A DNA stretch of 64,000 bases, from IMG/VR virus record IMGVR_UViG_3300045988_003641, positions 1 to 64,000 of that record; one strand, written 5' to 3'. Positions 1 to 8,963 of the stretch are shown here, in pieces. Each line of letters starts with the position of its first letter. Within the stretch, counting starts at the first letter, position 1. The position numbers were made by a program, and so were the translations under genes. The stretch is from a virus (taxonomy: Duplodnaviria > Heunggongvirae > Uroviricota > Caudoviricetes). The notes below the pieces were generated by a model. The model had not been told where the DNA came from. It made no database searches and saw only the letters and a list, made by a program, of their open reading frames with translations.

Positions 1-63
1 GCAGAAGACGGCATACGAGATGTAGCTCCGTCTCGTGGGCTCGGAGATGTGTATAAGAGACAG
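1..63. other. Illumina Nextera-type sequencing adapter (P7 flow-cell segment + 8-nt index GTAGCTCC + transposase mosaic end); not biological
   Basis: Matches GCAGAAGACGGCATACGAGAT-[index]-GTCTCGTGGGCTCGGAGATGTGTATAAGAGACAG from memory of the Nextera i7 adapter. Confidence 0.9.
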
Positions 64-188
64 CCCCAAAAGTCAAGAGAAAAATTTGTAGCGGATTGAA
101 AAATAATTCTTGATTTGCGTTCTGTTTTGTGGTAGTCGTGCGCACCCGTTTCATTACAGTTTTGCCAAAAATATTTTTAAAATTTTTA

Positions 189-248
189 TTGACTCTTTGA
201 ACGTGGTTATCTAATATTTACATCAACGGGGAGGGAATGACCTTCCCC
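189..248 (+). promoter_or_regulatory. Early cassette type A: sigma70-like promoter (TTGACT-17-TAATAT) + GGGGAGGG/CCTTCCCC hairpin + conserved leader
   Basis: -35 at 189-194, 17-nt spacer, -10 at 212-217; hairpin 228-248; leader CACTAAATAAA..CCTAAACTGGAGATTCAAAAATG. Confidence 0.7.
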
Positions 249-280
249 ACTAAATAAAATCCTAAACTGGAGATTCAAAA

Positions 281-469
281 ATGGCATCAAGAAAAATTAA
301 AGTTGGCGATGAGGTTAACATTAAGCACGAATACTCTTACAAAATGCTAACTATACGCTCTTATAAGGTTTATCAGGTGGAAGCTATCCACAAAGATAAT
401 ACTTTTTCCTTAAAAGGGTATAGCGAACGTTTCCCTGCTGAACTCTTTGAGAAATGGAGCGTGAAATAA
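281..469 (+). CDS. hypothetical early protein
   Basis: ORF 62 aa behind cassette leader/RBS GGAGATTCAAAAATG. Confidence 0.6.
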   Translation: MASRKIKVGDEVNIKHEYSYKMLTIRSYKVYQVEAIHKDNTFSLKGYSERFPAELFEKWSVK

Positions 470-675
470 TGCTTTACAGTCGTGAATTGATGGTTACAAC
501 TAACGTTAACACAAATGCAAAACGTTTTTACATGCAAATTTGTGGCGTATGGTCTAGAATATCAGAAGCTGACTATTGCAACTATGTAGAAACAGCTATA
601 AACTCTAATTGCTACCTTACAAGAAATACTAAAAAATTTACGAGACAGACAGCAATTTACTACTACGATAAATAA
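469..675 (+). CDS. hypothetical early protein
   Basis: ORF; start probably ATG 469 overlapping upstream stop (TAATG), GGAG 9 nt upstream; track start 454. Confidence 0.5.
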   Translation: MLYSRELMVTTNVNTNAKRFYMQICGVWSRISEADYCNYVETAINSNCYLTRNTKKFTRQTAIYYYDK

Positions 676-682
676 AAAGTAC

Positions 683-718
683 TTTACAAGGGGCTTATAG
701 TTCGATAAAGTAAGCCCC
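683..718 (+). promoter_or_regulatory. Early cassette type B: TTTACA-17-TAAAGT promoter-like element with GGGGCTTA/TAAGCCCC hairpin
   Basis: Recurring about 50-bp element; 8-bp stem; no T-tract so not a simple terminator. Confidence 0.55.
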
Positions 719-765
719 AGATAAAGAGCTTTACCAAATTAACCCTTAAACTAGGAGATTCAAAA

Positions 766-1149
766 ATGGCATATCGTGCACCTAAATTCATCAACAAAGA
801 CAACTTTCGCAACACACTGGAGAAGTCACTTGATGAAAATTTTAAAGGTAACATTATCGTTGTTCACGCATTCAATTTTAAGTATGATGTAAACGGGAAT
901 AGAATCAACCATTACACGGCAACCATGTTAGATGGTACACTTTCAAGTGAAAAAGCCGTACTAAATGCACTGGCAGGACGTGGAAAGGTATTAGTAAGAT
1001 GTGATAAGAGACGTTATCAGGGCGGTGCATATGGTTATGATGATGCTGTTTACCATCTTGAAAATATGGGCTATCAAGTAGAAAAAGCTGGAGCATCACA
1101 AATCATCGGCAGTGATGGTTATGTAACTATCTTCAAAATTAACAAATAA
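766..1149 (+). CDS. hypothetical early protein
   Basis: ORF 127 aa behind cassette leader. Confidence 0.6.
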   Translation: MAYRAPKFINKDNFRNTLEKSLDENFKGNIIVVHAFNFKYDVNGNRINHYTATMLDGTLSSEKAVLNALAGRGKVLVRCDKRRYQGGAYGYDDAVYHLENMGYQVEKAGASQIIGSDGYVTIFKINK

Positions 1150-1154
1150 AGTAC

Positions 1155-1190
1155 TTTACAAGGGGCTTATAGTTCGATAAAGTAAGCCCC
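1155..1190 (+). promoter_or_regulatory. Early cassette type B
   Basis: Near-identical copy of the 683-718 element. Confidence 0.55.
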
Positions 1191-1220
1191 AGATAAAAAG
1201 CTTTACTACTCAATCCTAAA

Positions 1221-1529
1221 TTGGAGAACTTAAAAATGGCTATTATCAAAAACGTTGTAATTACTGCAAAGACTCGTGATGACGCTCGCGTTATGGCTAA
1301 AAAGTTATGCGGTAAAGTGGTTGACAACGGAAAACAATCTGCTGTAAGGTGGGGTGTGAAGGTTGATAAACAGTTGAAGTTAAAAAATTCACCGATAAAC
1401 CTTTTTACATGTGTAAACACTATCGGGAAGACAAATGTATACACGAAAAAGGCATACATTAGACGCGTAGCATTAACATCCCCCATTCGTACAATGAGAA
1501 GTTATGCAAAGCTGAAAATTAACAAATAA
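1221..1529 (+). CDS. hypothetical early protein
   Basis: ORF 102 aa behind cassette leader. Confidence 0.6.
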   Translation: MENLKMAIIKNVVITAKTRDDARVMAKKLCGKVVDNGKQSAVRWGVKVDKQLKLKNSPINLFTCVNTIGKTNVYTKKAYIRRVALTSPIRTMRSYAKLKINK

Positions 1530-1534
1530 AGTAC

Positions 1535-1570
1535 TTTACAGGGGGCTTAAAAGCTGATACCTTAAGCCCC
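1535..1570 (+). promoter_or_regulatory. Early cassette type B (variant stem GGGGCTTAA/TTAAGCCCC)
   Basis: Covarying stem, same flanks. Confidence 0.5.
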
Positions 1571-1614
1571 AGATAAAGAGCTTTACCACTAAATCCTAAA
1601 CTGGAGATTCAAAA

Positions 1615-2127
1615 ATGAAAACTGTAGACGCTACCTTTGAAGTTGTAAAAGAAAAATTCACTATTATTTATGAAGCTGTCAATTGCTTTGAAGCAAGCCA
1701 TAATCTTGATAATTGGGAATTTACAGATGACCATCAAGGCGGTGTGACGATTAAAAATCCTAACTGTCAGCGTAATGAATTTAAATATGCAATCCCTTTA
1801 CATTACAGCCTTAAACAGCTTTCAAGTGACTATGCAAAACAAGGCCGGGCAAATCCATCAAAAGAGGCTTACATCAGCTTACAGAAAGAACTAGAAAGAG
1901 ATTTAGAGGCTTCAGAATATAACATTGCCGCGAAAGTTGTAGATGCAAATGGCAGCACTGTTTTAGAAAGTTTTTATATTGGTTACGCTTTCGATTGGTG
2001 CTACAGTGACGGCGATGATTTAGAGGATAGACTAAAAGAAGAGGTGAACAACGCAGACGCAGAATCTGAAGTATTAGAACGTTTGGAATCGTTGAAAGAC
2101 TCAGTGATGAATATCTTTAAGAACTAA
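1615..2127 (+). CDS. hypothetical early protein (acidic C-terminus)
   Basis: ORF 170 aa behind cassette leader. Confidence 0.6.
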   Translation: MKTVDATFEVVKEKFTIIYEAVNCFEASHNLDNWEFTDDHQGGVTIKNPNCQRNEFKYAIPLHYSLKQLSSDYAKQGRANPSKEAYISLQKELERDLEASEYNIAAKVVDANGSTVLESFYIGYAFDWCYSDGDDLEDRLKEEVNNADAESEVLERLESLKDSVMNIFKN

Positions 2128-2136
2128 ATAGATTCC

Positions 2137-2170
2137 TTTACACGGGGTTATCAAGCTGGTAGGATAGCCC
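2137..2170 (+). promoter_or_regulatory. Early cassette type B (variant)
   Basis: TTTACA + GGGGTTATC/GATAGCCCC hairpin + AGATAAAGAG flank. Confidence 0.45.
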
Positions 2171-2219
2171 CAGATAAAGAGATTTATCAAATAAAGCCCT
2201 TAAACTAGGAGATTCTAAA

Positions 2220-2516
2220 ATGAAATTATCAAATAAAGTCCGTGAAAATTTAAGCAAGTTACTTAATAAAATTGATTTCATTGAAACATCAAGAAATAGT
2301 CATGATGTTATGGAATGGTTACACGGAAAAATCAAAGGCCGTCGTGTAGTGATTTGCTTATGGAACAGTTGCAGGGAGTATAAAAAACCTGTATTGCAAG
2401 TCAATATTTATGATGATACTTTTAAAAGTCCTGTAAAATCTAAAAGCGATTTATTAGAATCCTATGAGATAACTGTAAATGGCAAAGTATCACGTAAAGA
2501 GGAAACACCATGTTAA
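2220..2516 (+). CDS. hypothetical early protein
   Basis: ORF 98 aa behind cassette leader. Confidence 0.6.
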   Translation: MKLSNKVRENLSKLLNKIDFIETSRNSHDVMEWLHGKIKGRRVVICLWNSCREYKKPVLQVNIYDDTFKSPVKSKSDLLESYEITVNGKVSRKEETPC

Positions 2517-2842
2517 TGACTGGTATCACTGCAATCATTGCCATTTTCGCTCTATATAAGGCATATAAAGCCTATAATCTAGCAAATAAGGCAACCACCC
2601 AGCAGGTTAGCAATAGCCTTGTAGAAAGCTTTCTAGGGCGTTTAAGTGATGAGCAAATAAAGCGGCTAGAGATGAGCTTCAGATATAAAGCGAAAACCTA
2701 TCAGATAAGTGACATCTTCAAAGATAATTTTCAGTTAGTGGATGATTATAATTCTCTGATAAATGCTTTAAATGTCAGTGACTTAAAAGACTACTACGCT
2801 GTAATTGTTCAAGAATTGAGCAAACGAAAACAAAACTGTTGA
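2510..2842 (+). CDS. hypothetical early protein, N-terminal hydrophobic segment
   Basis: ORF 110 aa, start overlaps upstream stop (ATGTTAATG); likely TM helix ITAIIAIFALY. Confidence 0.55.
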   Translation: MLMTGITAIIAIFALYKAYKAYNLANKATTQQVSNSLVESFLGRLSDEQIKRLEMSFRYKAKTYQISDIFKDNFQLVDDYNSLINALNVSDLKDYYAVIVQELSKRKQNC

Positions 2843-2898
2843 CACTGGTTTTTAGATAGATTAAATTACACATCAACGGGGAGGGAATGACCTTCCCC
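2839..2898 (+). promoter_or_regulatory. Early cassette type A (TTGACA-17-TAAATT + hairpin)
   Basis: -35 2839-2844, -10 2862-2867, hairpin 2878-2898. Confidence 0.7.
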
Positions 2899-2932
2899 AC
2901 TAAATAAAGCCCTTAAACTAGGAGATTCAAAA

Positions 2933-3091
2933 ATGTTTTGTGCAGGTGATAAAGTTGTCTGGAATGATATAGATGACGGTTTATGTACGAAAGTTGTTGT
3001 TATCTTAGAAATTGATTATATCACTGGTGTTGCAACTGTAGCAGATAATGATATAATCTTTGATGTCTTAATTAGTGAACTGTCAAAATAA
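2933..3091 (+). CDS. small hypothetical early protein (52 aa), not in supplied ORF track
   Basis: ATG directly behind cassette leader CTAGGAGATTCAAAAATG; 52 sense codons to TAA. Confidence 0.5.
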   Translation: MFCAGDKVVWNDIDDGLCTKVVVILEIDYITGVATVADNDIIFDVLISELSK

Positions 3092-3117
3092 AATCCTTAA
3101 ACTAGGAGATTCTGAAA

Positions 3118-3390
3118 ATGTATACTACTAACAACGGTCGCACTTTAAACGTAACCCTGCGTCACTATGTGAATGGTGTGATGCACTTTGATGATTTACA
3201 AGCTGAGCAACACATCTTAAATTGGCAAGTTGCAGGACTCCAAAAAACTGCTACAGGATACGGGAAAAAGATTCCAACCAGTTGGAAAGTATACTACGCA
3301 GGACGTTTACGCAGAATTTATCAAGATGTGCAAAGCAATAGCGCATCGAGTTACATTATAGTAAAAGGCAAAAAACTGCATTTAATGTAA
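3118..3390 (+). CDS. hypothetical early protein
   Basis: ORF 90 aa behind leader CTAGGAGATTCTGAAAATG. Confidence 0.6.
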   Translation: MYTTNNGRTLNVTLRHYVNGVMHFDDLQAEQHILNWQVAGLQKTATGYGKKIPTSWKVYYAGRLRRIYQDVQSNSASSYIIVKGKKLHLM

Positions 3391-3395
3391 AGTAC

Positions 3396-3430
3396 TTTAC
3401 AAGGGGCTTATAGTTCGATAAAGTAAGCCC
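3396..3430 (+). promoter_or_regulatory. Early cassette type B
   Basis: Copy of the 683-718 element. Confidence 0.55.
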
Positions 3431-3461
3431 CAGATAAAGAGCTTTACTACTCAATCCTAAA

Positions 3462-3881
3462 TTGGAGAACTTAAAAATGGCTATTAATAACCGTGAATTA
3501 TCAATTTTAAAAGCACGTTTGACCGTTAACCGGATTAATGTTATCACGTCATCAGCACCAGATGAAACACTACAAAACATTATTGGGAAGATTCAAAGTG
3601 TTATCTTAGACGTTGAAAGCGTAAAAAACTCATTGACTGACGTTGCAGCAGGTATCACGCTAGATGGTGCACAACATGAAATGGCCGACATGTTAGGCAA
3701 ATCTAAGGTAATGAATAAAGAGTTAGATTTGAAAATGTTCCGATTTGCTGTTAAAGTGTGGTTATCTGTCGAGTATGATGCTAACTTTGCAATCGCTGAC
3801 TTTTTCGCCACTTGGTTGCAGCGTAATTTGGCAAATCACGATTTCCGTAATATCTGCGATGCAATTTATGCAGAACTATAA
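3462..3881 (+). CDS. hypothetical early protein
   Basis: ORF 139 aa behind cassette leader. Confidence 0.6.
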   Translation: MENLKMAINNRELSILKARLTVNRINVITSSAPDETLQNIIGKIQSVILDVESVKNSLTDVAAGITLDGAQHEMADMLGKSKVMNKELDLKMFRFAVKVWLSVEYDANFAIADFFATWLQRNLANHDFRNICDAIYAEL

Positions 3882-3891
3882 AAAATTTTTG

Positions 3892-3951
3892 TTGACACTG
3901 GTTTTTAGATAGATTAAATTACACATCAACGGGGAGGGAATGACCTTCCCC
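3892..3951 (+). promoter_or_regulatory. Early cassette type A
   Basis: TTGACA 3892-3897, TAAATT 3915-3920, hairpin 3931-3951. Confidence 0.7.
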
Positions 3952-3984
3952 ACTAAATAAAGTCCTAAACTGGAGATTCAAAAA

Positions 3985-4188
3985 ATGGCTATTATTAATG
4001 GTTTAACCATTGAAACTACACACATCAAAGATATCAAAGTTGGTGATATAGTCCTTTCCCACGGCGTAGAAAAAACTGTCACTGCAAAGGATATCAAAGA
4101 GGATTCTTTCATGGGTAGGACTCTCTTCGGTGATTCTTATTGCTTAGGCTATCTTGCAGTTTTAAAAGTTGTCAAAAATAACAAATAA
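3985..4188 (+). CDS. hypothetical early protein
   Basis: ORF 67 aa behind cassette leader. Confidence 0.55.
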   Translation: MAIINGLTIETTHIKDIKVGDIVLSHGVEKTVTAKDIKEDSFMGRTLFGDSYCLGYLAVLKVVKNNK

Positions 4189-4193
4189 AGTAC

Positions 4194-4229
4194 TTTACAA
4201 GGGGCTTAAAAGTTGATAACTTAAGCCCC
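4194..4229 (+). promoter_or_regulatory. Early cassette type B (variant stem)
   Basis: GGGGCTTAA/TTAAGCCCC hairpin with conserved flanks. Confidence 0.5.
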
Positions 4230-4274
4230 AGATAAAGAACTTTACCACTAAATCCTAAACTGGAGATTCTAAAA

Positions 4275-4451
4275 ATGATGAACTACTTTAACATTCCCGA
4301 TACCTGTAGATTATTGACACAAGAAGAAAATTTGGGTAAACCTTTCATTTACCACATGCCAGATAACACGGCAAAAACTTATAGTTACAATGTTAACCGT
4401 TTCACCGCATACGCTGCAAAGAACGGCTATAGGTTGGTTACTCAAAAGTAA
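4275..4451 (+). CDS. small hypothetical early protein (58 aa), not in supplied ORF track
   Basis: ATG behind leader CTGGAGATTCTAAAAATG; open to TAA at 4449-4451. Confidence 0.5.
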   Translation: MMNYFNIPDTCRLLTQEENLGKPFIYHMPDNTAKTYSYNVNRFTAYAAKNGYRLVTQK

Positions 4452-4527
4452 TGCTGGTTACAACTGCTGGCGAGATTCCTACAGTTGCAGTCAAACTAGT
4501 TTTCTCAAAGAAAGTTAAATAAAGCAC

Positions 4528-4562
4528 TTTACAAGGGGTTTATAGTTCGATAAAGTAAGCCC
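4528..4562 (+). promoter_or_regulatory. Early cassette type B
   Basis: GGGGTTTA/TAAGCCCC hairpin with conserved flanks. Confidence 0.5.
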
Positions 4563-4609
4563 CAGATAAAGAGCTTTACCACTCAATCCTTAAACTAGGA
4601 GATTCAAAA

Positions 4610-5152
4610 ATGAAATGTTATCACGGAACTACTCAAGAAAATTTCCTCAACCTGATTAATAACGGTGATAAACCATCAGGCGCATGGAATTGTTCGGATA
4701 TGGACGGCAATTTTTACGTGTATCCAGAAAATAAAATCTATGGCGACGATGATGAAGAGATAACATCGGAGGGCATTCAGCAAGCTCTAGGGAACGCCAC
4801 TATTACGGCGGCCTTCCAGATGAAAACCCAAAATATTGTTATCTTAGAACTCGATATTCCAGATGATGAGCTAAATGATGATTATTCTTGTGATAATATG
4901 TCGAGTGTAGCAAGTTTTACAGAGTACTTTGATGTAAACTGGATTAAAAAGGTCTATACAACAGAGTTTAACGCTATGTATTCGCCTTTTTGTCTTCCTT
5001 CACTGGATAACCCAAATATGAACTATCTTGATGAGACATTAGAACTACTTGCTAAAAGTGTTCAACAGTCGGACAGTATTCAGGTTTTTTGTGACATCAT
5101 AGATACACTGACAGGAAACATTGCAGAAGAGGATTTAAAGAGCTTTTTCTAA
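4610..5152 (+). CDS. hypothetical early protein (acidic)
   Basis: ORF 180 aa behind cassette leader. Confidence 0.6.
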   Translation: MKCYHGTTQENFLNLINNGDKPSGAWNCSDMDGNFYVYPENKIYGDDDEEITSEGIQQALGNATITAAFQMKTQNIVILELDIPDDELNDDYSCDNMSSVASFTEYFDVNWIKKVYTTEFNAMYSPFCLPSLDNPNMNYLDETLELLAKSVQQSDSIQVFCDIIDTLTGNIAEEDLKSFF

Positions 5153-5185
5153 AAACCTATGCAATCACCTTATAAACACTAATCA

Positions 5186-5204
5186 GCCCCTTGTAGGGGC
5201 TTTT
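5186..5204 (+). terminator. putative rho-independent terminator
   Basis: GCCCCT-tgt-AGGGGC hairpin followed by TTTT. Confidence 0.5.
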
Positions 5205-5218
5205 AGAGGGCTTAAATC

Positions 5219-5452
5219 ATGCTTACAACCATTTATCTCATCCTCTCAATTTGTAATGGCCATTCATGTGACTTTAAAGGGCTTGAAGAGTTTACAGGAA
5301 GTAAAGAAAATGCTATTCAAGTTTGCCAGATAGCAAGGCAAGACTATCCCGCCAGTGATGATATACAATGTTACTTTAAGACAGAAGATGACGACGGAAT
5401 CTATTTCGACAGTGTTGACGGTCAATATGAAATTATCATTGAAAAAGACTAG
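5219..5452 (+). CDS. hypothetical early protein
   Basis: ORF 77 aa with AGAGGG RBS. Confidence 0.5.
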   Translation: MLTTIYLILSICNGHSCDFKGLEEFTGSKENAIQVCQIARQDYPASDDIQCYFKTEDDDGIYFDSVDGQYEIIIEKD

Positions 5453-5509
5453 ACAAGCCTGATAAAAGTCTGTAAATTGTCAATCAACGGGGAGGGAATG
5501 ACCTTCCCC
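5450..5509 (+). promoter_or_regulatory. Early cassette type A (TAGACA-17-TAAATT + hairpin); promoter overlaps 3' end of upstream CDS
   Basis: -10 5473-5478, hairpin 5489-5509. Confidence 0.6.
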
Positions 5510-5543
5510 ACTAAATAAAACCCTTAAACTAGGAGATTCAAAA

Positions 5544-5885
5544 ATGGCTTATGTAACCGTAATTACCGATAAAGCTGGCGCATCTTGGTCAACTCAAGTA
5601 AGTGATAAGATGTCACCTATGCAGTGCCTAAAATACTTTGAACAGTGGAACAAAGGCGAGGACACAAGCCCCTTTCAAGTGATGCAGATTATCCATGTAG
5701 ATAACGAAGGGAATAAAACGGTTTTAAATAGTGAATACTACGCAAGCCGTTTTGAAACGAGAAGTAAAACAATGAAGCTTTTACGTGAATCCGGTTATGC
5801 CCATATCGCCGCGTTAATCTGGGATGACCTGCTAAAAAGTCAGCGTATCAGCTATGTAAAGCCTGAAAAAATATTCATCAGTTAA
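5544..5885 (+). CDS. hypothetical early protein
   Basis: ORF 113 aa behind cassette leader. Confidence 0.6.
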   Translation: MAYVTVITDKAGASWSTQVSDKMSPMQCLKYFEQWNKGEDTSPFQVMQIIHVDNEGNKTVLNSEYYASRFETRSKTMKLLRESGYAHIAALIWDDLLKSQRISYVKPEKIFIS

Positions 5886-5917
5886 TCAATAACTTACAAA
5901 AAACTTTTAAAAAAGTG

Positions 5918-5946
5918 TTGACAATACCCCTTGACATTGGTAACTT
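5918..5946 (+). promoter_or_regulatory. sigma70-like promoter with tandem TTGACA boxes
   Basis: AAAAAGTGTTGACA...TTGACA; -35 5918-5923, 17-nt spacer, -10 TAACTT 5941-5946. Confidence 0.45.
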
Positions 5947-6014
5947 TGTTCGAGGGGGCTTATCTAAAAGGGATTCACTTAAAAGATTCTTTATAGATAA
6001 GCTCAAAAAATTAC

Positions 6015-6073
6015 TTGCAATCAACTATCAAAACAAGTAAATTACTAATCAACGGGAAGGCAATAACCTCCCC
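6015..6073 (+). promoter_or_regulatory. Early cassette type A variant (TTGCAA-17-TAAATT + GGGAAGG/CCTCCCC hairpin)
   Basis: Covarying hairpin arms, same leader. Confidence 0.6.
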
Positions 6074-6105
6074 ACTAAATAAAGTCCTAAACTGGAGATT
6101 CTAAA

Positions 6106-6636
6106 ATGAACAAATTTCAAGCTATCAACTTCATTCGTTCAAATGCTGTAATGTCTAAGCCTGTAAAAGATACATACGAATTCCGTTGTAATGGGGTACA
6201 TTTCGCAACAATCACCAAATCAGAAAACGGGGCTTATTACGTTCATCGTCGTAATGTTTCCACTGTTGTAGTCTCTCACTTTATGCAAGCTGTAGCGGAA
6301 TTATTACCGTTATTCTTAGAGATTTACTTAGATGAGTGTAAAAACGTTCACAACCACGTTAAAAACCTTTTAAACGGTTATAAAATGGCTTATGAACGTT
6401 CTATCAAGTCCTTAAACAAGTTCTATAAAGCCCCTGAAAACTCTGTTGCTTCAGCCTATGGCGTAGGCGGTTGGACTGTTAGTCTCTTCGAAGTGGAAGA
6501 AATCGAGCTTTACGACCATCGACCTAACGGTTACTCTAAGACTCTCGGTGAAGGTTTAACGTTCAATATCAAGAACTTAGAAAAAACTTTAAAAGATATT
6601 GAAAAAGATATTGACGAGACAATAAAAAGTCTGTAA
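6106..6636 (+). CDS. hypothetical early protein
   Basis: ORF 176 aa behind cassette leader. Confidence 0.6.
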   Translation: MNKFQAINFIRSNAVMSKPVKDTYEFRCNGVHFATITKSENGAYYVHRRNVSTVVVSHFMQAVAELLPLFLEIYLDECKNVHNHVKNLLNGYKMAYERSIKSLNKFYKAPENSVASAYGVGGWTVSLFEVEEIELYDHRPNGYSKTLGEGLTFNIKNLEKTLKDIEKDIDETIKSL

Positions 6637-6670
6637 ATTGTCAATCAACGGGGAGGGAATGACCTTCCCC
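6611..6670 (+). promoter_or_regulatory. Early cassette type A (TTGACG-17-TAAATT + hairpin); overlaps 3' end of upstream CDS
   Basis: -35 6611-6616, -10 6634-6639, hairpin 6650-6670. Confidence 0.65.
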
Positions 6671-6702
6671 ACTAAATAAAGTCCTAAACTGGAGTTATCA
6701 AG

Positions 6703-6966
6703 ATGGAAAACGTAGAATTAACCACACTTTTACAAATTGCAACTGACAAAGAAGATGTAGCACTGTTTCACCGTATCGAAAGCGATTTATTCAATGGTGA
6801 AATCATCAAAGAGTCTTACGAAGTTGTCGGATTCAAAGATGGTAAAGCGTTTGGCTTTTTTGACCTCGACAAAGGCAACGCTGTCACAAAGTATGATGTC
6901 GTATCTTGTGAGATTCTTACAAAATACAACGAAAAAAGGCTTGCAACATACGCCAATATGCAGTAA
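6703..6966 (+). CDS. hypothetical early protein
   Basis: ORF 87 aa behind cassette leader. Confidence 0.6.
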   Translation: MENVELTTLLQIATDKEDVALFHRIESDLFNGEIIKESYEVVGFKDGKAFGFFDLDKGNAVTKYDVVSCEILTKYNEKRLATYANMQ

Positions 6967-6997
6967 ATTACTAATCAACGGGAGGCGATAACCTCCC
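6941..6997 (+). promoter_or_regulatory. Early cassette type A variant (TTGCAA-17-TAAATT + GGGAGG/CCTCCC hairpin)
   Basis: -35 6941-6946, -10 6964-6969, hairpin 6980-6997. Confidence 0.6.
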
Positions 6998-7032
6998 TAC
7001 TAAATAAAACCCTTAAACTAGGAGATTCAAAA

Positions 7033-7281
7033 ATGGCAACTATCCGCGCTACTGTCAATGCCTATGGCTGTTATACTCTGGACGTTAAATTCGATATTGG
7101 TGGAACTGATGAGTGTTTTTCATTAGTGAAGACAGTTATCAAACAAGTTATTCCAGATTATAACCCTACTGATGACTTCTGGAAAGATGCTGTAAAAGAG
7201 GCATTAAACGACGAGCATCACTATCATTACTGGGGTGACTTGATTGTTTCCCTGTACTACAATAAACAAGGTTACAACTAA
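7033..7281 (+). CDS. hypothetical early protein
   Basis: ORF 82 aa behind cassette leader; last gene of plus-strand early block. Confidence 0.6.
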   Translation: MATIRATVNAYGCYTLDVKFDIGGTDECFSLVKTVIKQVIPDYNPTDDFWKDAVKEALNDEHHYHYWGDLIVSLYYNKQGYN

Positions 7282-7320
7282 TCGACGCAACGGGGCTAAA
7301 TAGCCCCAGATACCTGAACA

Positions 7321-7370
7321 GCCCCTATTTAGTATGGATTCGATAGAATCTATCTCATAGGGGCTTTTTT
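7321..7370 (+). terminator. rho-independent terminator closing the early plus-strand block
   Basis: GCCCCTAT...ATAGGGGC stem followed by TTTTTT. Confidence 0.6.
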
Positions 7371-8963
7371 ACGTCTATCGAATCCTTATACAATCTCTTT
7401 CCATCACCTTTCCAGAATCTATCTCATACCTTAAAAGCAATAACTCTATAGTCTACTCTATAACCTCTTATCAAATCAACTTAAATAAAAGCCCATAACC
7501 CGAAAGGGAAGGGCAACCGTTTAAACGCTCTATAAAGCTCTATAACAGCCTTATCAACCTAACTTAAGGGATTGCATTAACTCACCCTTAAAAGCTCTTT
7601 ACAGGGCTTTATAGAGGCTTAAAAGAATCTTATAAGGGTGTAAGCTTTATTACCTCGTTAGCTATCTTGTGAACTACTAAAAAGGGCTTGTTAGTGTCTT
7701 AAAAGTATGTTATAGGGGCTTAAAAGTTACGTAAAAGAGGCTATAAAGTTACGTAAATACTAGCCCCCTTAACATTTTCTTAACATTTTCTTAACAATTT
7801 CTTAACAATCCCTACATAGTTATTCTTTTAAGGCACTTGTTAGCAACTTGTTAGCACCTTGTTAAATCTCTGTTAATACCACGTAAAAGCCTTGTAAGAG
7901 TCTTTGACATAGCCTTAAAAGCTCCTGTAAAGCCCTATAAAGAGTTATCTGTACAGTTGGGGTGTAACTACTAGGAAGAGACTTAAAAGAGCTTATAAAG
8001 AGCTATAGAGAGCTTTTAAGAGGTATGTTTAGAGAATCACTAAGAAAGGAAAGGAACGATAAGGAAGAAGTAGTGACCATGTTAACAGCTTGTTAAAAAG
8101 ATTAAATACTTGTTAGAAACTTGTTAATTATCTTAACAAGATAACTCTTAAAAATTAACTTGTTAGCTCTTGTTAGTCATCTGTTAAGATTCTGTAAAGC
8201 CTATGTATCAACTGTTAAGAAACTGTTAAGCCCTTGTTAGTTCTGTTAAGAATCTGTTAAGACCTTTGAAGAGTTGTTAAGAGCTTGAGAGAGCTGTTAA
8301 GAGATTGTTAAGGATATTTTAAAATTTTGCAAAGTACTTGTAAGGGAGCTGTTAAGGGCTACCAAGCAGATATACATCTTCTACAGATATTTTTCAGTTC
8401 CTTCAAAGACCCTAAAAAATGACTTGATAGTCCTATTTTATAAAAATTTTAAAATTCTGAATAATTACCTAGACAGTCTTTTAAAAATACAGGTAATAAC
8501 AGGCTTATAAGATACCTTGTTAGTACCGTGTTAGACCTTGTGAGATAAGGTCTGTAAAGATATTCCTGTTAAGTTTGTTAAAACAGTCTATATAGAGGCT
8601 TAGTAATACCTAGTGAACACCTATAGAGGGTATCATAGGTAACATAGGGATTAAGAGGTGTATAGGAGCTTCTAAGAGGGTATAGAGAGATGGTTAAGGT
8701 GATTGTATAGGTTGTTTAGAAGGCTTGTTAGAAGAGTGTTTAGAAGGGCTATTTAGAAGGGTTATACAGAGGGCTATTAAGACCACTAGATAGTTACTAA
8801 GATACTATATAGTACTATATAACTATATAGAGAGTAAGATTAAGAAGGTTGTTAAGAAGGATAGATATTTTATTCACATATGATGGTGACCAAGAGGTTG
8901 GGACAACCGATAAAATTTTATAAAAATTAAAAAGCCCCCAATTAAGGAGGCTCTTAAGATATT
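7371..8963. repeat. 1.6 kb ORF-free tract with dense short repeats: 30 or more TGTTA(A/G) copies in both orientations, plus TTAGAAGG x4, ACTATATA x3, AAGTTACGTAAA x2
   Basis: No ORF of 60 aa or more on either strand; motif spacing 10-12 bp in the 8100-8360 core. Confidence 0.7.

Follow-up and report, generated by a model that had tools for sequence, protein, structure and literature searches.

In Felix O1-like phages, the packaged DNA has fixed ends with short direct terminal repeats, which mark the ends of the virion DNA. In UAB_Phi87, Bal31 digestion and run-off sequencing gave fixed ends and a terminal repeat of 608 bp (PMC4837284), and for Pr103Blw a terminal repeat of 581 bp was determined with PhageTerm (PMC8303462). 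The records of vB_EcoM_D4 and vB_EcoM_H12 are also based on PhageTerm (PMC11737134). For the Felix O1 reference, the opening upstream of rIIA was no more than a convention (PMC3185647), and record starts in this genus are therefore uninformative on the termini. Generally, termini are poorly called from read starts in transposase libraries (PMC13108922).

The DNA analysed here, in the following called the window, comprises the first 64,000 nt of an IMG/VR contig. Judging from its sequence, the contig is from base 64 on the genome of a Felixounavirus, i.e. of a Felix O1-like myovirus. Of the 64 kb, 60.8 kb are colinear with positions 7922-69500 of Escherichia phage vB_EcoM_ASO1A at 96.4% identity, the G+C content of the window is 38.9%, and every one of the best matches listed from the phage collection is a Felix O1-like phage with Escherichia or Salmonella as host, several of which are assigned to Felixounavirus. 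In the alignments, base 64 is the very first position with homology to related phages. Two records of other phages also match the intergenic region at this point, namely GU169904.1 (Staphylococcus phage SA1; positions 128189-129156, ~95% identity) and MG065664.1 (Campylobacter phage A132; positions 69996-70324, ~86% identity); the Felix O1-like sequence probably entered them by contamination or mislabelling.

The 63 nt in front of the phage sequence are synthetic and represent an Illumina Nextera XT i7 adapter, N718, followed by the Tn5 mosaic end, which is the transposase recognition end of Nextera adapters. They read GCAGAAGACGGCATACGAGAT, GTAGCTCC, GTCTCGTGGGCTCGG and AGATGTGTATAAGAGACAG, and in a string comparison all 63 bases agree with the series CAAGCAGAAGACGGCATACGAGAT, GTAGCTCC, GTCTCGTGGGCTCGG and AGATGTGTATAAGAGACAG minus its first three nucleotides (Table 1). 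The N718 primer of the Nextera XT Index Kit v2 is composed of CAAGCAGAAGACGGCATACGAGAT, the index GTAGCTCC and GTCTCGTGGGCTCGG (PMC9010798, Table 6), and the sequence of the Nextera i7 index primer is also given in PMC4730607. The window thus has the same parts in the same order, identical in all bases and abutting the insert. It differs from the primer in lacking the initial CAA, as would be expected for the outermost end of an assembled contig. By chance, a given 63-mer is expected ~1e-34 times on both strands of 64 kb. A second copy of the mosaic end or of the P7 part was not found in the window with up to three mismatches allowed, and neither TruSeq, P5 nor i5-side Nextera sequence occurs anywhere in the 64 kb. 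At the junction, GCAGAAGACGG...GAGACAG is joined to CCCCAAAAGTC, and the CCCC at 64-67 is what remains, as the final run, of a C-rich tract reading CCCCTCTCCCCCTCTTACTCCCCCTCTCCCC in relatives. The first 63 nt are a library-preparation and assembly artefact and no biological element. The preliminary description had taken them for library adapter and GTAGCTCC for a Nextera i7 index in adapter orientation; both assignments were correct, and the index can now be named. A resemblance of the mosaic end to the genomic sequence TATAGAGAGCCAG, ~35 nt upstream of the junction in a MAFFT alignment, was rejected as a chance partial match. The stretch shared by TATAGAGAGCCAG and the beginning of the read-through adapter is only six consecutive bases long, and no indication was found that this similarity leads to trimming.

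Table 1. Adapter parts, phage features and contig breaks at the locus. Positions refer to the window unless another record is named.
Feature	Position	Strand	Basis or remark
P7 flow-cell segment of the Nextera i7 index primer (CAAGCAGAAGACGGCATACGAGAT), lacking the initial 3 nt	1..21	+	exact, 21/21 bases
i7 index GTAGCTCC = N718 in adapter orientation; read form GGAGCTAC	22..29	+	kit list, PMC9010798 Table 6
Nextera i7-side (Read 2) primer-site segment GTCTCGTGGGCTCGG	30..44	+	exact, sole copy in the window
19-nt Tn5 mosaic end AGATGTGTATAAGAGACAG, joined directly to the insert	45..63	+	exact
First phage bases CCCCAAAAG, assigned as 9-bp Tn5 target of the read-through fragment	64..72	+	alignments with relatives and L007
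Sigma-70-like promoter TTGACT-17-TAATAT	189..217	+	consensus scan; ASO1A homologue annotated as promoter 8047-8073
Intergenic cassettes (examples), group 1	676-770, 1133-1238, 1515-1620, 2126-2231, 3388-3486, 4172-4285, 4510-4615		
Intergenic cassettes (examples), group 2	220-285, 2862-2935, 3915-3990, 5472-5552, 6036-6108, 6633-6705, 6962-7043		
Predicted direct terminal repeat, 601 bp, single (collapsed) copy	7763..8363	+	homology to PhageTerm-based termini
C-rich tract in relatives	L001 2974-3004 (ASO1A 7895-7925); L007 35-63; L025 60-79; L034 ~5733-5753		
Break 1, window start	base 64		N718 adapter
Break 2, L007 start	25 nt upstream of window junction		i5-side Nextera adapter
Break 3, L025 start (IMG/VR 3300045988_004180, 89,118 bp)	16 nt upstream of junction		N705 adapter
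Break 4, L034 end (IMG/VR 3300045988_009833)	in tract		read-through adapter, index GGAGCT(AC) = N718 read form
Break 5, LMP34 record end (MK482690, GenBank 'partial genome', L172)	in tract		
Break 6, TH10 record start (MT446388, GenBank, L175)	in tract		

The same adapter, with other standard kit indices, is present in 44 unrelated GenBank phage records, mostly at the record ends and including phages of Escherichia, Listeria, Bacillus, Streptococcus, Pseudomonas and other hosts, as well as in at least 120 IMG/VR contigs. Among the IMG/VR matches listed, 123 of 124 lie within 43 nt of a sequence end and point outward, as is characteristic of short inserts read through into untrimmed adapter and retained as tips of contigs. 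The adapter-tipped contigs of GenBank/INPHARED and IMG/VR thus resemble the window in having the adapter outermost and directed outward, and among them are two contigs of Felixounavirus, both with their break in the C-rich tract that is truncated in the window. Unlike the window, a few GenBank records have the adapter internally, under annotated genes. Examples are MK327946.1 (76697-76759), MT584805.1 (107523-107585) and MH973725.1 (6644-6706), the genes concerned including those for a baseplate hub/tail lysozyme and a DNA polymerase. Such internal copies suggest chimeric joins or unremoved adapter in published assemblies. An unrelated viral contig of 56 kb (L110, IMGVR_UViG_3300045988_060054, positions 1-120) likewise starts with an N705 adapter, directly followed by a sequence with many C-runs (CTACAACCCCTATTACCCCCTATAATCCCCCTAAC...CTCCCCCTTTCCCTCCCC); anecdotally, this is another case of a break with an adapter tip at a motif of the G4 type.

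The phage genome extends beyond base 64 on the left. A contig from ENA (ERZ651970 NODE_1493, here L007) is 100.000% identical to window 64-2384 over 2,321 nt; it extends upstream of base 64 by 25 further genomic bases, CCTCTCCCCCTCTTACTCCCCCTCT, before it ends in the i5-side adapter TCGTCGGCAGCGTC and a mosaic end. By this identity, L007 is another assembly of the phage in the window. The two contigs may stem from one library, in which case they represent separate fragments and not separate experiments. The upstream sequence also occurs in relatives, in that 208 of 225 related records run through the junction without a gap, among them that of UAB_Phi87, obtained on a Roche GS FLX (PMC4837284). 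Searches of IMG/VR and of the GTDB genomes gave no other sequence with the exact junction of the window, and protein look-ups returned relatives and L007. The 63 nt are absent at the junction locus in every related record matched there, UAB_Phi87 included. The preliminary description would have given up its claim if the 63 nt had been present in assemblies made with another library chemistry; they are absent there, and the claim stands.

The homologue of base 64 is intergenic in ASO1A and VpaE1_ev78, with a macro-domain phosphatase gene ~300 nt upstream of it and an annotated early promoter ~125 nt downstream. The corresponding promoter of the window heads a series of early-gene promoter cassettes. 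In relatives, ~8 kb of genes, including rIIA and rIIB, directly precede its homologue. Since the contig start is an artefact and these genes lie upstream in relatives, the promoter is not the first feature of the genome, as the preliminary description had already suspected for the element at 189. The array of small early genes at 220-7043 is interspersed with repeated intergenic cassettes of ~65-100 nt, and the annotation of ASO1A shows promoters and rho-independent terminators at the cassette positions. In the Logan short-read contigs L010-L012, the sequence breaks off at the first of these cassettes, where the repeated promoter lies near window 229.

The contig start does not coincide with the termini mapped in close relatives, which are 7.7 kb away. 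The records of Pr103Blw, vB_EcoM_D4 and vB_EcoM_H12 all start at the homologue of window position 7763 (GCCCCCTTAACATTTTC...), and in the Pr103Blw record a 581-bp repeat is annotated at both ends, the end of which corresponds to position 8363 (...GGGCTACC). The window therefore traverses a collapsed terminal repeat: the region homologous to the repeats of UAB_Phi87 and Pr103Blw is present once and is flanked as a collapsed repeat would be. By homology, the left end of the virion DNA is expected at 7763 and the right end at 8363, and base 64 is unrelated to these ends. The Bal31 and SpeI data of UAB_Phi87 are consistent with termini at the homologous positions, as its SpeI fragment over the repeat region measures 6,568 bp and the published terminal fragments predict 4322+2819-608 = 6,533 bp. 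The record starts of UAB_Phi87 (JN225449), beside the tRNA gene cluster, and of FO1a (JF461087), at rIIA, were considered as termini and rejected; as neither is a virion end, the PhageTerm-based records and the SpeI calculation were used instead. The repeat_region features of the MN850xxx records were likewise discarded, as they are small internal repeats and not terminal ones. The predicted repeat lies in a stretch of ~1.7 kb (7282-8963) without any ORF of at least 45 aa. At its left edge, tandem 11-nt units TTAACA(T/A)TTTC are found at 7769, 7780 and 7791, with a degenerate fourth at 7802, one unit more than in Pr103Blw, D4 and H12. Mapping the reads of a library of this type would be expected to show chiefly a twofold coverage of the terminal repeat.

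The preliminary description held that the contig start is an assembly artefact and does not define a genome terminus. The 25 nt by which L007 extends the sequence, the 208 contiguous records and the termini at 7763 and 8363 all bear this out. For the joint statement that the 63 nt are an adapter artefact, that the contig start is not a terminus and that the genome extends to the left, we estimate a probability of about 95%.

In relatives, base 64 is preceded by the conserved 31-nt C-rich tract CCCCTCTCCCCCTCTTACTCCCCCTCTCCCC, of which the window retains only the last four C. Closed through the tract, the continuation of the window would read CCAACCCCTCTCCCCCTCTTACTCCCCCTCTCCCC, followed by AAAAGTC. 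The complement of the tract, GGGGAGAGGGGGAGTAAGAGGGGGAGAGGGG (GGGG-AGA-GGGGG-AGTAAGA-GGGGG-AGA-GGGG), is by sequence a canonical G-quadruplex motif, defined as (G>=3 N1-7)x3 G>=3, that is, four runs of at least three G with loops of 1-7 nt. Both strands of the 87,613-bp genome of ASO1A contain no other motif of this kind, and with 21 C in 31 positions the tract is also the most C-rich 31-mer of this genome. By the same criterion, the window itself contains no canonical motif. Strong conservation of the tract was considered and ruled out, as Felixounavirus ZX4221 (L177, OR498728.1, ~81,700-81,760) has an unrelated sequence there that is not C-rich, and Mooglevirus Mordin (L176, ~8,400-8,440) has a variant with changes, in which the four C-runs are kept. 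This suggests little biological specialness of the tract, and nothing here requires a structural or regulatory role.

In a survey restricted to the tract locus, the 31 nt were found to contain six ends of contigs or records, which derive from at least four data sets; four of the six carry a Nextera adapter (Table 1). In the IMG/VR pattern scans, adapter junctions at this locus were found only in L025 and L034. Most Felixounavirus assemblies cross the tract, including 8 of 10 contigs of the IMG/VR set 3300045988. These ends show that short-read assemblies of Felixounavirus break repeatedly in the tract, which looks like a technical weak point and no biological end. For human DNA, the mean Illumina coverage of G4 motifs is only 0.81x that of controls (PMC10519405).

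How the adapter came to tip the contig can be outlined as follows. A tagmentation fragment with its left end cut by Tn5 at window position 64, shorter than the read length, would have been read through into the adapter. If the adapter was left untrimmed, the assembler may have retained its k-mers as an extension of the contig end. Contig tips from untrimmed read-through of short inserts are known from Nextera chemistry and de Bruijn assembly, and on this knowledge we infer a read-through origin of the first 63 nt. The assembly graph, circular or concatemer-like with the terminal repeat collapsed, would have been opened at base 64. Its break may be due to a small number of fragments spanning the tract, with amplification or sequencing dropout at this G4/i-motif-prone and locally GC-rich sequence, or to frequent cutting by Tn5 within it. 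In both cases, adapter tips could rival the true path through the graph, and we lean towards one of the two as the cause.

A first alternative accepts the adapter as artefactual and regards its position as arbitrary, the circular graph having been opened at random and the tract having no role. Assemblers do open circular paths arbitrarily, and the adapter-tipped ends in IMG/VR abut all kinds of sequence, with only one of the 124 flanks listed (L110) visibly rich in C-runs. However, the probability that a random break falls in one particular 35-nt stretch out of an 88-kb genome is only ~4e-4, against the six ends observed in the tract, and the tract is a compositional extreme of the genome in ASO1A. 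We therefore regard an arbitrary position as improbable.

Even less probable is that the contig start adjoins a real physical discontinuity of the virion DNA, be it a genome terminus or a nick or break at a specific site of the C-rich tract. As the outermost bases of a DNA end cannot be tagged by Tn5, contigs would terminate a few bases short of such an end and gain an adapter, and the clustering of several ends within 31 nt, from both sides, is what a fixed end would give in tagmentation data. Against this, the termini of UAB_Phi87, Pr103Blw, D4 and H12 all map to the homologue of 7763/8363, 7.7 kb off, and more than 200 assemblies are contiguous at the tract. The record of TH10, which starts in the tract, reads through the whole of it at its other end and overlaps its own start. 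Furthermore, the last nine genomic nucleotides of L034, CTCTTACTC, are identical to the first nine of L025. Tn5 makes a 9-bp target duplication; the duplex was therefore intact at this site when it was tagmented. On the strength of the target duplication and the mapped termini, a physical end was rejected.

That the 63 nt are true phage DNA, e.g. a Tn5-derived insertion or an engineered construct, has nothing in its favour but the presence of transposon-end sequence and has practically no chance of being correct, as the 19-mer is the synthetic mosaic end fused to Illumina P7 and a kit index, the adapter sits at the extreme contig end and points outward as in 123 of the 124 listed IMG/VR matches, and the other assembly of the same phage, L007, has genomic sequence in its place. 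We know of no natural or mutagenesis transposon that bears a mosaic end fused to P7 and a kit index.

For the handling of such records, the adapter artefact means that the 63 nt should be trimmed prior to deposition or annotation and that base 1 of the contig is not to be taken as a genome end. A better opening of the genome would be the predicted terminal repeat at 7763 or, following the Felix O1 convention, a position upstream of rIIA. Dozens of phage records in public databases are contaminated with this adapter, which makes it a data-quality issue. It seems very unlikely to us that the tract adopts a non-B structure (G-quadruplex, i-motif or H-DNA) or carries a site-specific nick in the phage DNA, with a possible role upstream of the early-gene array, e.g. 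in transcription control or Rho loading; if this were true, the assembly breaks would report a real physical property of the virion DNA. For Felix O1-like phages, the recurrent breaks mean that short-read assemblies, especially those from tagmentation libraries, tend to break in the C-rich tract, and that a break found there should be closed by PCR or long reads and not read as a terminus.
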